A stretch of DNA of 64,000 nucleotides from an uncultured Acidobacteriaceae bacterium (GTDB lineage Bacteria > Acidobacteriota > Terriglobia > Terriglobales > Acidobacteriaceae). The stretch lies in contig CAWGNC010000003.1 in assembly GCA_963823865.1 (NCBI GenBank), forward strand, positions 1,603,842 through 1,667,841, in the 5' to 3' direction. Of the stretch, positions 54,879-60,536 are shown in pieces. Under the pieces are notes generated by a model. The model was not told the origin of the DNA. It saw nothing but the letters and a program-made list of their open reading frames with translations, and did no database searches. Position 1 is the stretch's first letter. Each line of letters starts with the position of its first letter. Made by a program: the position numbers and the translations under genes.

Positions 54879-54960
54879 TGTCATCCTGAGCGGAGTCGAC
54901 CGCTCTGTCTTTTCGACTCGCCGACGTTGCGAGTCGGGCGGGCGCGCAGTCGAAGGACCT
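54879..54960. repeat. variant copy of the GTCATCCTGAGCG...GTCGAAGGACC element (with internal insertion)
   Basis: It shares both termini with the four copies listed below and lies in the nuoM-nuoN spacer. Confidence 0.75.
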
Positions 54961-55080
54961 GCTATGTCCGGCTGCTCGACCGAATAGCAGGTACCGCTCG
55001 GACTGCGCCGCGATCGAAAGGCGCCGTCGCCTCCGCTCGGGCTGACTACATCGGCTGGCGTCGGGTCCGTCGCGGCGCCG

Positions 55081-56652
55081 CTAGCCGGAGCTTCTGCCGG
55101 AGCGACAGGCTGCGTCGCCAGCACCGGCTTGATGCATGCCCGGATAATCCGGACGCACCGTCGCCACCAGGTTGTTTACCGGCGTGGAGAGAATCTGGAA
55201 GAACGGCTTGGGATACAGGCCGATCCAGAAAGCGATGATCACCAGCGGAATCAGCGTCGCCAGCTCGCGTCCGGAAAGATCGAGCAGCTTCTCGTTCTTG
55301 GGATTTTCTACCTTGCCGAAGAACACGCGCTGATAGAGCCACAGCAGGTACGCCGCGGCGAGAATCACGCCCGGCACCGCCCACGCGGCCCAGATCTTGT
55401 TCTCCATGAACGTGCCTTGCAGGATGGTGAACTCGCCGACGAAGCCGTTCAGCAGCGGCAGGCCCATCGACGACATGAACATGATCAGCGTGATGGTCGC
55501 GTACACCGGCATCACGTTCGAGATGCCGCCGTACTCCGCGATCTCGCGCGTGTGCCGCCGCTCATACAGAATGCCGACAATCAGGAACAGCGCGCCGGTG
55601 GAGATGCCGTGGTTGATCTGCTGCAGCACCGAGCCGCTCAGGCCCAGCGGGCTCAGCGCGAAGATGCCGAGCGTGCAGAAGCCAAGGTGGCTGACCGACG
55701 AGTACGCCACCAGCTTCTTCATGTCCTTCTGCATCAGCGAGACCAGCGCGCCGTAGATGATGCCGATCAGCGACAGCGTGATCATCAACTGGCGCACCCA
55801 CGGCGTCATCGCCACGGCCGGGAAGAACGGCAGCGAGAAGCGGATCATGCCGTACGTTCCCATCTTCAGCAGAACGCCGGCCAGGATGACCGAGCCCGCG
55901 GTCGGCGCCTCGACGTGCGCGTCGGGCAGCCAGGTGTGGAACGGGAACATCGGCACCTTGATCGCGAAGCCGAGGAAGAAGGCGAAGAACAGCCAGATCG
56001 CCGCGTGCCCGCCGATCTTCGGCGCCGTCGCGTAAAGGTCGGGCAGGTAGAACGTGTACACGCCGGTCAGGGTGTGGTGATGGAAGTACAGGAACAGGAT
56101 GCCCAGCAGCATCAGCACCGAGCCGAACAGGGTGTACAGGAAAAACTTGATCGCCGCGTAGAGCTTGCGCGGTCCGCCCCAGATGCCGATCAGCAAGTAC
56201 ATCGGCACCAGCATGGCCTCCCAGAAAACGAAGAAGAGGAACATGTCGTTGGCCATGAAGACGCCGAGCATGCCGGTCTGCAGCACCAGGAACCAGACGT
56301 AATATTCCTTGACGCGGTCCTGGATGGCGTTCCACGACGACAGGATCGAGATCGCGCCCAGCAGCGTGGTCAGCATGATCAGCAGGAACGAAATGCCGTC
56401 GATGCCGAGGACGTAGCCGGCGCCGATGGTCGGGATCCAGTTGTTGGGCGCGCCTTCGACAAACTGGAAGCCGGCGCGCTCCTTCAATGCCCAGAACCAC
56501 GGAATCAGCGGCAACGAAACCGCAAAGCCGAGGAACGCGAAGATGTTGGCGATCCAGCGGATCGCGTTCTTGTTTTCCTTGGGCACCAGCAGCAGGAGCG
56601 CAGCTCCCACCAGCGGCGTAAATAAGACGATCGAAAGAATATGGTTGTACAT
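55081..56652 (-). CDS. nuoM: NADH-quinone oxidoreductase subunit M
   Basis: Intact 523-aa ORF with typical NuoM sequence (FFVFWEAMLVPMYLLIGIWGG, HVEAPTAGSVILAGVLLKMG). Confidence 0.95.
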   Translation of the reverse strand: MYNHILSIVLFTPLVGAALLLLVPKENKNAIRWIANIFAFLGFAVSLPLIPWFWALKERAGFQFVEGAPNNWIPTIGAGYVLGIDGISFLLIMLTTLLGAISILSSWNAIQDRVKEYYVWFLVLQTGMLGVFMANDMFLFFVFWEAMLVPMYLLIGIWGGPRKLYAAIKFFLYTLFGSVLMLLGILFLYFHHHTLTGVYTFYLPDLYATAPKIGGHAAIWLFFAFFLGFAIKVPMFPFHTWLPDAHVEAPTAGSVILAGVLLKMGTYGMIRFSLPFFPAVAMTPWVRQLMITLSLIGIIYGALVSLMQKDMKKLVAYSSVSHLGFCTLGIFALSPLGLSGSVLQQINHGISTGALFLIVGILYERRHTREIAEYGGISNVMPVYATITLIMFMSSMGLPLLNGFVGEFTILQGTFMENKIWAAWAVPGVILAAAYLLWLYQRVFFGKVENPKNEKLLDLSGRELATLIPLVIIAFWIGLYPKPFFQILSTPVNNLVATVRPDYPGMHQAGAGDAACRSGRSSG

Positions 56653-56660
56653 AATTTAAT

Positions 56661-56703
56661 AGCTCTCAGCAATTCAGCTATCAGCCGTCAGCAATTAGCT
56701 AAG
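56661..56703 (-). repeat. heptamer array (sense GCTAATT-type) just upstream of the nuoM start
   Basis: AGCTCTC AGCAATT CAGCTAT CAGCCGT CAGCAATT AGCTAAG. Confidence 0.85.
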
Positions 56704-56715
56704 TCAAAACCTCGC

Positions 56716-56766
56716 TGTCATCCTGAGCGCAGGATCGCGTCTTCTGCGATCCGGAGTCGAAGGACC
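56716..56766. repeat. GTCATCCTGAGCG-(GGATCGC hairpin)-GTCGAAGGACC element
   Basis: TGTCATCCTGAGCGCAGGATCGCGTCTTCTGCGATCCGGAGTCGAAGGACC. Confidence 0.9.
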
Positions 56767-56784
56767 TCTACCGTCCGCCAAGAT

Positions 56785-56880
56785 CTGCCGTCCCTACGGG
56801 ACTCAGCTCTTCGAGGGGTAGCCAACCCCGCGGCTCCCGACCGGGGCCTAAAATCAGTTTCGCCCTTCGGGCTCGGACAT
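56785..56880. repeat. CTGCCGTCCCTACGGGACT module plus GC hairpins
   Basis: The core is identical to 31905-31923. CCCGACCGGGG- and GCCCTTCGGGC-type hairpins follow. Confidence 0.8.
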
Positions 56881-56943
56881 TCGTTATTCAAAGATCTAGA
56901 CCAAAATCTTCGGCCACTCATGACCGCATGGTTTTCAAAGACC

Positions 56944-57013
56944 GCAACTGCGTTACCAACAACCGAACTGGCCACCGGATCACTGACAACTGGCCACTGA
57001 CAACTGACAACTG
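56944..57013 (-). repeat. heptamer array (sense CAGTTGT-type) 4 nt after the nuoL stop
   Basis: About ten 7-nt units, including ACAACTG GCCACTG ACAACTG ACAACTG. Confidence 0.9.
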
Positions 57014-57017
57014 TCTC

Positions 57018-59609: not shown

Positions 59610-59613
59610 AAAT

Positions 59614-59648
59614 AGCTCTTAGCTCTTAGCAATTGGCAACTAGCCAAA
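59614..59648 (-). repeat. heptamer array (GCTAATT-type) upstream of the nuoK start
   Basis: AGCTCTT AGCTCTT AGCAATT GGCAACT AGCCAAA. Confidence 0.85.
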
Positions 59649-59653
59649 AAACT

Positions 59654-59702
59654 TGTCATCCTGAGCGGAGGATCGCGGTTTTGCGATCGGAGTCGAAGGA
59701 CC
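59654..59702. repeat. GTCATCCTGAGCG element copy
   Basis: TGTCATCCTGAGCGGAGGATCGCGGTTTTGCGATCGGAGTCGAAGGACC. The hairpins GCCGGCTAAAGCCGGC, CACGGCTAAAGCCGTG and GCGGAGCTGAAGCTCCGC follow at 59730-59838. Confidence 0.9.
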
Positions 59703-59844
59703 CCATTCCAGCACCCGCTCTTCCTGCCGCCGGCTAAAGCCGGCTTACATCCCGTGTCGCTCGTTGCACGGCTAAAGCCGTGCCCTTTCAATTCGCTCTG
59801 TTCGATCAGTCTCATTGAGCGCGGAGCTGAAGCTCCGCAGGACT

Positions 59845-59872
59845 CAAACTGACAACCGACAACCGGCAACTG
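59845..59872 (-). repeat. heptamer array 5 nt after the nuoJ stop
   Basis: CAAACTG ACAACCG ACAACCG GCAACTG. Confidence 0.85.
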
Positions 59873-59877
59873 CCTTC

Positions 59878-60396
59878 TCAAATCCTCTTCTTCGCCATGA
59901 CCACCGCGCCTACGATGGCGACCAGCAACAGCAGCGAAGCAATCTCGAACGGGAACATGTACTGTCCGTACAGCGCCAGGCCGATCTGCTGCGTGTTGTC
60001 CCCTTCCAGCCCGCGATAGCCCTGATAGAACACTGACGGAAATCCTCCGCGGCCGGCGCGCAACACAAATGCCAGCAGCCCGCCCAGCGCCAGCGCGGCG
60101 ATCGTTCCGACCAGCCACTGCTTGTTGAACTGATACTCGCGGATGTTCTGCTCCAGGTTGATCAGCATGATCACGAACAGGAACAGCACCATGATTCCGC
60201 CGGCGTAGAGCACGATCTGCACGCCGGCAACGAACGGGGCATACAGCATCAGGTAGAAACCGGCCAGCGACAGCAGAGTCACGATCAGCGACAGCGCCGC
60301 ATGCACCGGATTGCGCCGGGTGATCACCGCGATCGCCGAAACAATCGCCATCACCGCGAGAAAGTAGAAGAAGAATGTTGTGGCAACTGGATTCAT
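59878..60396 (-). CDS. nuoJ: NADH-quinone oxidoreductase subunit J
   Basis: Intact ORF. The ATG at 60396 gives MNPVATTFFFYFLAVMAIVSA. The ORF-track TTG at 60414 lies inside the heptamer array. Confidence 0.9.
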   Translation of the reverse strand: MNPVATTFFFYFLAVMAIVSAIAVITRRNPVHAALSLIVTLLSLAGFYLMLYAPFVAGVQIVLYAGGIMVLFLFVIMLINLEQNIREYQFNKQWLVGTIAALALGGLLAFVLRAGRGGFPSVFYQGYRGLEGDNTQQIGLALYGQYMFPFEIASLLLLVAIVGAVVMAKKRI

Positions 60397-60402
60397 AAAA
60401 TC

Positions 60403-60437
60403 AGCAATTAGCAATTAGCCGTTAGCAATTAGCAAAA
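60403..60437 (-). repeat. heptamer array (GCTAATT-type) upstream of the nuoJ start
   Basis: AGCAATT AGCAATT AGCCGTT AGCAATT AGCAAAA. Confidence 0.9.
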
Positions 60438-60475
60438 TCGCGATTCGCGTTCGCTCTTACCCAGAAAACTCATCG

Positions 60476-60536
60476 TGTCATCCTGAGCGCAGGATCGCGC
60501 TTATTGCGATCCGGAGCCGAAGGACCCCTGCCGCTA
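60476..60536. repeat. GTCATCCTGAGCG element copy
   Basis: TGTCATCCTGAGCGCAGGATCGCGCTTATTGCGATCCGGAGCCGAAGGACC. Confidence 0.9.

Follow-up and report, generated by a model that had tools for sequence, protein, structure and literature searches.

Results and Discussion

A genome-wide family of palindromic repeats

A hairpin element that recurs in the nuo operon of an uncultured Acidobacteriaceae bacterium belongs to a genome-wide family of palindromic repeats, which are probably non-autonomous and resemble repetitive extragenic palindromes (REPs). The stretch studied (the window, 64,000 nt) is G000:C3:1603842-1667841, where G000 is an assembly of 4.93 Mb with 58% GC in four contigs (GCA_963823865.1), referred to below as the source genome. 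A pattern search of the window found the left box of the element, GTCATCCTGAGCG (L-box), as five exact matches at 54880, 56717, 59247, 59655 and 60477, all on the plus strand. When up to two mismatches were allowed, 13 matches were obtained against 2.47 expected, and none of 100 shuffled sequences reached 13. Each of the five L-boxes is followed 35-70 nt downstream by a right box, G[TC]CG[AC]AGGACC (R-box), which is degenerate in copy 3. Copies 2, 4 and 5 carry the inner stem GGATCGC...GCGATC(C), and in copy 3 the 3' arm has decayed to GCGCTCT. The nuo genes, identified from long open reading frames (ORFs), lie on the minus strand, and the copies are antisense to them with one copy in each spacer from nuoI/J to nuoM/N. 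One copy per spacer in a single orientation is the arrangement described in an earlier note made from the sequence of the window. A sixth copy with the GGATCGC stem is located about 800 nt past the window end, at G000:C3:1668637.

In the source genome, 253 L-boxes with at most one mismatch were counted, 188 of them followed by an R-box, with a modal length of 49-51 nt. An nhmmer profile gave 217 matches (199 at E <= 1e-3), and all 150 candidates scored with a covariance model (R1) were matches, including four nuo copies at 57-76 bits. About 200 copies in total are scattered over all four contigs. The feature of copy 1 that had earlier been taken for an internal insertion is instead the mark of a long-centre subfamily with about 37 occurrences genome-wide. 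The coordinates given earlier for the copies hold except at the 3' limit, which was drawn too short, as conservation runs about 13 nt further (NCTAYnnCnnnAA). The reading of a spurious ORF through the element as CHPER...SRRT is correct for frame 1 of the plus strand.

The presence of one copy per spacer in a single orientation, with the GGATCGC stem common to four of them, could also be produced by purely local duplication within the nuo operon, or the copies could be integron-like attC sites marking cassettes. Integron attC sites have R''/L''...L'/R' cores (RYYYAAC ... GTTRRRY) and occur in arrays next to an integrase. By inspection such cores are absent from the boxes, which are unlike the R'/R'' cores of attC (an integrase was not searched for), the nuo genes do not form cassettes, and the element is found on all contigs as well as in other genera and phyla. 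Local duplication alone, which the earlier note had kept as the alternative, is refuted because further copies and stem covariation were both found, and we give either version practically no credence.

Structure and covariation

The complete unit is about 65-70 nt long and consists of an unpaired (T/C)GTC tag, an outer stem, a bulged T, two CGNAG motifs, an inner stem-loop and a CC-NCTAY tail. The outer stem has eight positions (ATCCTGAG / CGAAGGA(C/T)), with two conserved tandem G.A/A.G mismatches at positions 6-7. The L-box columns are at least 90% conserved. In the copies listed, ATCC comes immediately after TGTC or CGTC, and the tag is preceded by G in 72% of copies. The outer stem opens with an A-T pair only in some 23 copies, those of the GGAT type; the others have A.C there. 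The outer T-A, C-G, C-G and T-A pairs are formed in 91-98% of cases, and the outer helix covaries as a block (TCCT:AGGA in 150 copies, TCCC:GGGA in 24, mixed in four). In the tail, CC is followed by NCTAY. REPs of RAYT systems have a conserved GTAG tetranucleotide at the 5' foot of their hairpin; here, GTAG or ATAG stands on the bottom strand at a distance of 2-3 nt from the foot in 46-72% of the source-genome copies, and CCGCTAC, CCGCGAC and other tails are found in other phyla. The centre between the boxes measures 1-109 nt (mode 26 nt) and contains a second covarying helix. The shortest forms still have an 11-nt centre, CGNAGCGNAGT, and the short form of the invariant module is GTCATCCTGAGCGGAGCGCAGTCGAAGGACC; these short forms are essentially the outer stem plus one GCGNAGC-type mini-hairpin.

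Compensatory changes were scored on a hand-drawn rod with 14 Watson-Crick pairs, laid on an alignment (A2) of 65 copies in the order UCCU/AGGA; tandem G.A/A.G; G-C; bulged U; C-G; G.A, N.N, A.G; G-C; inner stem. Pairing was found in 91.8% of cells, both sides had changed in 11 of the 14 pairs, and 93 cells were doubly changed. The covariation score was 0.284 against 0.096; no value was reached in any of 500 shuffles, and every slid control collapsed. All eight pairs of the inner stem covary, which answers the question of the earlier note on compensatory changes in this stem. For copies 2 and 5, the rod was reproduced by folding with ViennaRNA. The two CGNAG motifs would also allow an alternative local fold as GCGNAGC-type mini-hairpins, GCGNAGC being a DNA mini-hairpin of extraordinary stability (PMC13037366). 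The conserved mismatches are G.A as written and would be C.T on the complement, and the two strands are therefore non-equivalent. No strand bias of wobble pairs was found in the source genome, with 27 G.T and 19 A.C at paired positions.

A search of positions 50000-64000 on both strands with all 4227 Rfam families at E <= 1 returned only two matches to Acido-Lenti-1, both beside the element. Readings of the CUGA/CGAA boxes as hammerhead, twister, pistol, hatchet or K-turn motifs were rejected by eye, as the catalytic positions do not fit. An intrinsic terminator was rejected as well, since the inner stem is followed by GGAGTCGAAGG on the plus strand and by CTGCGCTCAGGATGACA on the minus strand, with a T-run on neither.

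Placement of the copies and inverted doublets

Copies are intergenic in 183 of 199 cases (92%, with a crude ORF-based gene call). Spacers between convergent genes are enriched, holding 28% of copies vs 18% of all junctions, and those between divergent genes are depleted (8% vs a baseline of 18%). Among pairs within 600 nt of each other, 36 are inverted and tail-to-tail with the TGTC ends outward, vs 13 of other geometries. The gap is 16 nt or less in 20 of these 36 inverted pairs, and the two halves usually differ in the inner stem. The doublets span 120-220 bp, and half of the copies are single. Single copies of the source genome are oriented nearly evenly relative to the flanking genes (36 antisense and 32 sense; 28 vs 19 for type A), and the copies show no replication-strand bias when compared with GC skew.

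The earlier note had also considered a family like miniature inverted-repeat transposable elements (MITEs). If this means a MITE descended from an insertion sequence of the DDE type, the unit of about 65 nt would be a terminal inverted repeat and the doublet the transposing unit, as suggested by the size of the doublets, their outward conserved TGTC ends and their great regularity in Gemmatimonadales and Phycisphaerae genomes. Target-site duplications of at least 4 bp were looked for, and direct repeats between flanks occurred as often as in shuffled-pair controls (duplications of 2-3 bp are beyond the reach of this test). The unlike inner stems of the doublet halves and the abundance of single copies do not fit a transposing doublet. 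No full-length parent with these ends was found, the genes between distant inverted copies are ordinary, and no paralogous gene family adjoins the copies in the source genome. A MITE of this kind is thus very unlikely.

Distribution across genomes and phyla

All 24 genomes of the genus have exact boxes, with 3-118 copies per genome, and none of 16 genomes from a sister family in the same order has them. With the covariance model, the element was found in 10 of 10 other genomes of its own family and in 10 of 140 genomes sampled from the rest of the phylum. Among the matches listed, with one genome per species, are Terriglobales, Granulicella, Terracidiphilus, Sulfotelmatobacter and Korobacteraceae, and also records titled Eremiobacterota, Baltobacteraceae, Phycisphaerae, Gemmatimonadales, Chthoniobacterales and Alphaproteobacteria. 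Whole-genome counts outside the phylum were made with a slightly relaxed pattern, for which reversed-pattern controls gave zero throughout. They amount to 103 copies in an Eremiobacterota record titled chromosome (G207) and, in metagenome-assembled genomes, to 123 in a member of the Gemmatimonadales (G208), 305 in one of the Phycisphaerae (G212), 13 in one of the Chthoniobacterales (G213) and two in an alphaproteobacterium (G209). Of 81 genomes sampled from the phylum of G207, the element occurs in 13. In these other phyla, the copies mostly form heterodimeric doublets of great regularity. In addition, 27 stretches (L168-L194) on 20 IMG/VR contigs, catalogued as viral, carry the element, with at least five copies on IMGVR_UViG_3300037258_000931 (132,674 bp). 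These contigs may be phages, prophages with flanking host sequence or misclassified host DNA; if viral, they would be a possible route between hosts.

Transposase genes and neighboring repeat families

Given the inverted doublets, the element could be a classical REP, or a REP doublet forming a hairpin (REPIN), mobilized by a REP-associated tyrosine transposase (RAYT) of the Y1 (HUH) type encoded in the source genome. The genome has 13 matches to PF01797 (Y1), the hairpin is imperfect with a bottom strand that begins 5'-GTAG(C/A)GGTAGGGG (tail consensus CTAY), and target-site duplications are also missing in single-strand transposition of the IS200/IS605 type. Yet the element flanks none of the 13 Y1 genes, and none has a copy within 1.2 kb; those of about 145 amino acids are flanked by Acido-Lenti-1 and those of about 190 by GGGGCACCC. 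A Y1 gene was present in only 2 of 120 foreign 8-kb element loci and was adjacent to the element in neither. No PF01797 match was found in G207, in G208 or in a third genome with 76 copies (G262), one of the three being a record titled complete chromosome, and no replication-strand bias was found in the source genome. Mobilization by a RAYT of the source genome is therefore disfavored and appears quite unlikely.

IS110-type elements target REP-like hairpins. The IS110-family transposase (PF01548) was rejected as a universal partner, as no match was found in G208 or G212. Neither of the transposase families tested, PF01797 and PF01548, travels with the element. A single anecdote comes from G207, where an IS110-family transposase gene (C1:1956751-1957188) lies about 300 nt from an element copy (1957479-1957519).

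Acido-Lenti-1 (RF01687; Weinberg 2010, PMC2864571) shares the spacers of the element, directly 3' of copies 2 and 5, and the same phylum, and is unrelated to it in sequence and structure. In inverted orientation it flanks five Y1 genes of about 145 amino acids, of the RAYT type or the type associated with terminal inverted repeats (TIRYT), in loci L001, L003, L004, L005 and L007. The Y1 genes are at about 1500-1830 of each locus, with Acido-Lenti-1 on the minus strand upstream and on the plus strand downstream at distances of 100-500 nt; upstream of the gene in L001, five or six copies stand in tandem. The arrangement is that of a classic REPtron and suggests that Acido-Lenti-1 is the repeat cognate to these Y1 genes and not a free-standing small RNA. 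Acidobacterial Y1 genes with terminal inverted repeats have been noted, without a link to the Rfam family in the sections of the paper available to us (Di Nocera 2013, PMC3733652). Y1 genes of about 190-200 amino acids (G000:C1:587528, C2:1115853, C1:217194) are bracketed by inverted GGGGCACCC(G)TTCTA repeats and presumably form with them another REP/RAYT pair of the source genome. A sister family of the element, TTGTCATCACGAGCG-(AAG or short hairpin)-CGAGGGATCTGCTGTT, has 23 copies in the source genome, for example at 34958-34970 of the window on the minus strand, and one of its copies lies about 130 nt upstream of a Y1-like gene of about 186 amino acids (C2:764403-764699). A third variant, GTCATCCCGAGCG...CGAGGGACC, occurs in 26 copies.

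Relation to described repeat superfamilies

The superfamily of CGTC-tagged REPs, which includes Neisseria dRS3 and Rickettsia RPE-4/RPE-6, is portrayed in the consulted portions of its description (Di Nocera, De Gregorio and Rocco 2013, BMC Genomics 14:522, PMC3733652) as four families with a CGTC tag (variants TGTC, CCTC), an 8-9-bp stem starting A-T, T-A, a 4-5-nt loop and a CCA tail. According to the same portions, they form mostly inverted dimers, often heterodimers, occur without an associated transposase gene, and were reported in Proteobacteria, Chlorobi, Bacteroidetes, Spirochaetes and Thermotogae. So far as these features go, the element agrees with them in its unpaired terminal tag, the predominance of inverted dimers (36 of 49 close pairs here), which are often heterodimers, and the lack of an associated transposase gene. 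It resembles them in part in the layout of the stem, which has eight positions but starts with A-T in the GGAT-type copies alone, and in the unpaired C-rich tail (CCA there, CCN here). Members of both are occasionally intragenic or supply stop codons. It differs from their perfect stems and 4-5-nt loops by two invariant G.A mismatches, a bulge and a structured insert of 11-70 nt with a covarying hairpin. It also differs in the longer and different tail CC-NCTAY and in its main host phyla, none of which is among their five. On this partial description, in a comparison by described features and not base by base, we have filed the element as a longer, composite variant related to the CGTC/TGTC-tagged superfamily and outside its four described families.

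Like the REP/REPIN-RAYT systems, the element comes as hundreds of short, imperfect palindromes between genes, which form inverted doublets, lack target-site duplications, prefer gene 3' ends and have stems that evolve by compensatory change. In contrast to them, it flanks no RAYT gene, occurs in genomes without PF01797, and has boxes common to several phyla; the RAYT-flanking repeat of the source genome is Acido-Lenti-1, a different family. The element is thus of the ordinary REP-like kind in an unusually widespread and structured form, REP-like in its working and not REPIN-RAYT. A sequence-based literature search returned unrelated matches only and no paper with the element's sequence, and the element is not described in the part consulted of a survey of REPs from 2025 in which Acidobacteriota genomes are listed.

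The nuo spacers in relatives and the heptamer arrays

The nuoJ-K-L region was compared across 30 genomes of the genus. The J-K junction is only 4 nt (TGANATG) in five genomes and reaches 320 nt in others, and the K-L spacer varies from 55 to 717 nt. Long spacers have a common order in the nuo sense: the stop codon, a CAGTNGN array, Acido-Lenti-1-like and other hairpin repeats, the antisense element, 10-25 nt, a GCTNANN or GCGAANN array, and the ATG. The element is present in seven J-K and about 15 K-L spacers and is antisense every time. Orthologous K-L copies have the stem GGATCGC/GCGATCC in three relatives (L130, L134 and L148) and GGCGCGC/GCGCGCC in four (L133, L140, L150 and L153), that is, two compensatory pairs at one site. 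Although GGATCGC is the commonest inner stem in the source genome, it is found in only 16-18 of 183 copies (about 9%), and yet all four canonical nuo copies and the next copy past the window have it. Given the orthologues in relatives and this shared stem, the nuo copies appear to have been inherited and/or locally homogenized; judged from their sequences, they are neither five independent insertions nor a private duplication. Filled- and empty-site junctions are undefinable in the nuo spacers of relatives, since whole blocks of several repeat families differ between species. In L148 (G002:C3:513930-517232), the 717-nt nuoK-L spacer has a 46-nt unit with the variant box GGACTGAAGTCCTCGGTCGGGATGACAACCGTTGAGTT repeated about six times in tandem between two canonical copies.

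Heptamer arrays were detected genome-wide with the family-specific patterns GCTNANN and CAGTNGN, as a strict period-7 detector found too few. A GCTNANN array lies within 60 nt of the TGTC side of 19 copies, all in the nuo (antisense) geometry. In 16 more copies this side has a CAGTNGN array, in the same sense, at up to 100 nt. On the R-side the numbers are two and seven, respectively, with a rough expectation of about one per geometry. The association of element and array is clearly non-random and is confined to about 18% of copies. The earlier note placed a heptamer array beside every copy and took this as a sign of a composite cassette rather than independent insertions. Copies 2-5 do abut start-proximal arrays, and copy 1 does not. 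The non-random link and the common history of the nuo copies agree with a cassette, and the low share of copies with an array genome-wide does not. In minimum free energy folds of the J-K (59610-59877) and L-M (56653-57017) spacers in the nuo sense, the stop-proximal array pairs with the start-proximal array and encloses the element; this predicted pairing closes the whole spacer into one large hairpin that joins the stop and start codons. By inspection, the Gs that distinguish the stop-proximal unit face Us of the start-proximal unit in the nuo sense, which become C.A mismatches in antisense, and for this reason the arrays look like the outer arms of a large sense-specific spacer fold in the modeled structures.

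The earlier classification as a family like REPs or bacterial interspersed mosaic elements (BIMEs) is borne out by the copy number of about 200, the strong inner-stem covariation, the inverted doublets and the mosaic spacers with Acido-Lenti-1 and heptamer arrays. As in enterobacterial BIMEs, several unrelated short repeats are combined in the nuo spacers in a fixed relative order and orientation. The component motifs differ from those of BIMEs, and the likeness of the nuo spacers is one of layout, seen in sequence alone. TAACTGA-type heptamer direct repeats (MacGregor 2015, PMC4679880) are comparable to the arrays that hug the stop and start codons and flank the tag side of the element; being tandem 7-mers without a hairpin, such repeats are neighbors in the mosaic and not the element itself.

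The features of the nuo region are collected in Table 1. The CTA at 59304-59306 in the tail of copy 3 is the complement of the nuoK stop codon TAG, and the CTGCCGTCCCTACGGGACT module also follows other copies in the genome. The coding sequence of nuoL (57018-59177) is broken into at least four overlapping frames and that of nuoN (53178-54786) into two, with the neighboring small nuo genes intact; indel errors of a long-read assembly or real lesions are possible reasons.

Table 1. Element copies, neighboring repeats and genes in the nuo region (window positions unless a contig is given)
Feature	Position	Strand	Details
nuoN	53293-54786	-	
Copy 1, nuoM/N spacer, long-centre subtype	54879-54960	+	TGTC tag and L-box 54879-54892; 56-nt nested-hairpin centre; R-box GTCGAAGGACC 54949-54959
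nuoM	55081-56652	-	
Start-proximal array (nuo sense GCTNANN), copy 2 to nuoM start	56660-56702	-	
Copy 2, nuoL/M spacer, canonical type A	56716-56780	+	L-box 56717-56729; GGATCGC/GCGATCC; R-box GTCGAAGGACC 56757-56767; tail TCTACCG
Copy 2, covariance-model match	G000:C3:1660555-1660615		76.3 bits; DNA fold gives the rod model
CTGCCGTCCCTACGGGACT hairpin module directly 3' of copy 2	56785-56804	+	weak match to second Acido-Lenti-1 hairpin, 23.1 bits, below gathering score
Stop-proximal array (nuo sense CAGTNGN) behind nuoL	56969-57014	-	predicted partner of 56660-56702
nuoL	57018-59177	-	
Start-proximal array, copy 3 to nuoL start	59180-59233	-	
Copy 3, nuoK/L spacer, degenerate	59246-59309	+	3' arm GCGCTCT; R-box GCCGCAGGACC 59287-59297; tail CCCTACCGCTAC
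Copy 3, covariance-model match	C3:1663085-1663145		69.1 bits
nuoK	59304-59609	-	
Start-proximal array, copy 4 to nuoK start	59613-59647	-	
Copy 4, nuoJ/K spacer	59654-59703	+	GATCGC/GCGATC; R-box GTCGAAGGACC 59692-59702; non-canonical tail
Copy 4, covariance-model match	C3:1663493-1663551		56.9 bits
Stop-proximal array behind nuoJ	59847-59875	-	predicted partner of 59613-59647
nuoJ	59878-60414	-	
Start-proximal array, copy 5 to nuoJ start	60401-60436	-	
Copy 5, nuoI/J spacer, canonical type A	60476-60540	+	GGATCGC/GCGATCC; R-box GCCGAAGGACC 60517-60527; tail CCTGCCGCTAC
Copy 5, covariance-model match	C3:1664315-1664375		74.0 bits; DNA fold z = -2.5
CTGCCGTCCCTACGGGACT hairpin module 3' of copy 5	60544-60564		
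Acido-Lenti-1 (RF01687), R-side of copy 5	60583-60643	+	39.4 bits, gathering score 37; separate repeat family in the same mosaic spacer

A proposed mode of propagation and an RNA-level alternative

In the mechanism we propose for the REP-like family, the invariant tag, the mismatched outer stem and the tail would form a recognition part for whatever copies or maintains the element, most likely recognized as a folded single strand of DNA. The enzyme would act in trans; it would be neither encoded beside the copies nor a Y1 transposase of PF01797 in all hosts. The inner stem would only have to pair and could thus drift by compensatory or self-templated changes. Such a family may colonize intergenic DNA with the tag end towards a gene boundary, often as inverted doublets, and may spread horizontally between hosts. 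Together with the heptamer arrays and the RAYT-associated Acido-Lenti-1, it would have inflated the tight nuoI-N junctions into mosaic spacers of 126-430 nt, in which the copies would be inherited, as their orthologues in relatives suggest, and locally homogenized to GGATCGC. The hairpins might in turn affect the nuo mRNA. The invariant part comprises the TGTC tag, the stem and its tandem G.A pairs, the paired CGNAG/GCGNAGC mini-hairpin motifs and a tail resembling CCGCTAC. Its letters are almost the same in Acidobacteriota as in genomes with the labels Eremiobacterota, Gemmatimonadota, Planctomycetota and Verrucomicrobiota. One may speculate that it is the recognition module of an undescribed system independent of the transposase neighborhood, being either a new machinery for single-stranded DNA mobilization that soil bacteria exchange horizontally, or an RNA 3'-end/terminator element, domesticated from a repeat, which hosts such as Eremiobacterota would set in sense right on stop codons and which would even provide the TGA; we consider this unlikely and offer it tentatively.

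Several observations weigh against a purely mobile REP-like repeat. The single-sequence z-scores of the folds are weak (-0.2 to -2.5), and the evidence for structure is therefore comparative, not thermodynamic. The gene context in the source genome and in G207 is taken from crude ORF-based calls made for this analysis. Mobility itself is deduced from copy number and patchy distribution, the mobilizing enzyme and an exact insertion polymorphism not having been recovered. Between phyla, the boxes of 13 and 11 nt hardly differ. Classical REPs are specific to a lineage, and so are REPIN populations, which are passed on vertically (Nunvar 2010; Bertels and Rainey 2011, PMC3116915; Ton-Hoang 2012). 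The near-identity of the boxes points to either recent horizontal spread or a constraint stronger than selfish mobility. In G207, where 52 single copies were assessed in 50 stretches (L195-L244) with ORFs called by GC content at third codon positions (GC3), a same-sense gene is located upstream of 45 of the 52, and the orientation found there is more in keeping with a role at the level of RNA, or one linked to transcription, than with a parasite of DNA alone.

The orientation in G207 is the main ground for the alternative that the element is a cis-acting structured RNA selected at each site, that is, a stabilizing 3'-end or intercistronic hairpin, a terminator without U-tract or a processing site, with purine-rich internal loops that would bind a host RNA-binding protein or RNase. 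Single copies in co-directional spacers of G207 are 25 in sense vs three in antisense, the L-box starts -10 to +8 nt from the upstream stop codon in 18 of the 45 cases, and in seven cases the TGA inside the L-box (TCA TCC TGA) is itself the stop codon. A second hairpin of the GGCTCGCTACGCGAGCC type stands behind many of these copies. From their sequences, there are hints of a link between the element and the 3' ends of transcripts in at least some hosts. The inner-stem covariation and the conservation of the boxes across phyla also speak for an RNA, and the exclusively antisense orientation in the nuo spacers of about 17 relatives would be expected if sense copies terminate or cleave transcripts and are not tolerated within an essential operon.

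However, those nuo copies are largely orthologous and hence not independent evidence. The single copies of G207 form long same-strand runs, for example 18 consecutive plus copies at 3.42-3.67 Mb, which coincide with a regional bias in gene strand and GC skew, so that transcription and replication are not fully separable there and the orientation bias is confounded. No such bias exists in the source genome, in which about three upstream ORFs end at an L-box TGA. Its random orientation, the symmetric use of wobble pairs and the lack of a T-run on either strand likewise speak against an RNA, and a patchy presence within the phylum and a range of 3 to 118 copies within a genus are unlike a required regulatory signal. 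Selection as an RNA at each site is thus possible although rather unlikely, and it is partly compatible with the REP-like reading if the repeat has been domesticated.

Implications

The transposase-less CGTC-type REPs have had no known copying mechanism since their description, and the element is better material for this question. Its recognition part is long, rich in information, conserved across at least five phyla and cleanly separable from a free-running inner stem, and it is present at 100-300 copies in genomes without Y1 matches. With such a long, conserved, abundant and separable module, it is feasible to look for the missing partner by phylogenetic profiling and to run pull-downs on a 30-nt oligonucleotide of defined sequence. 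For annotation, the family accounts for many spurious 'CHPER/VILS...SRRT' ORFs in soil metagenomes, for some C-terminal -Ser-Ser-stop endings, and for the inflated, structured spacers of nuo and other operons in the genus. The strong sense bias that Eremiobacterota copies show just past stop codons may mean that a selfish repeat was recruited there as an mRNA 3'-end signal.

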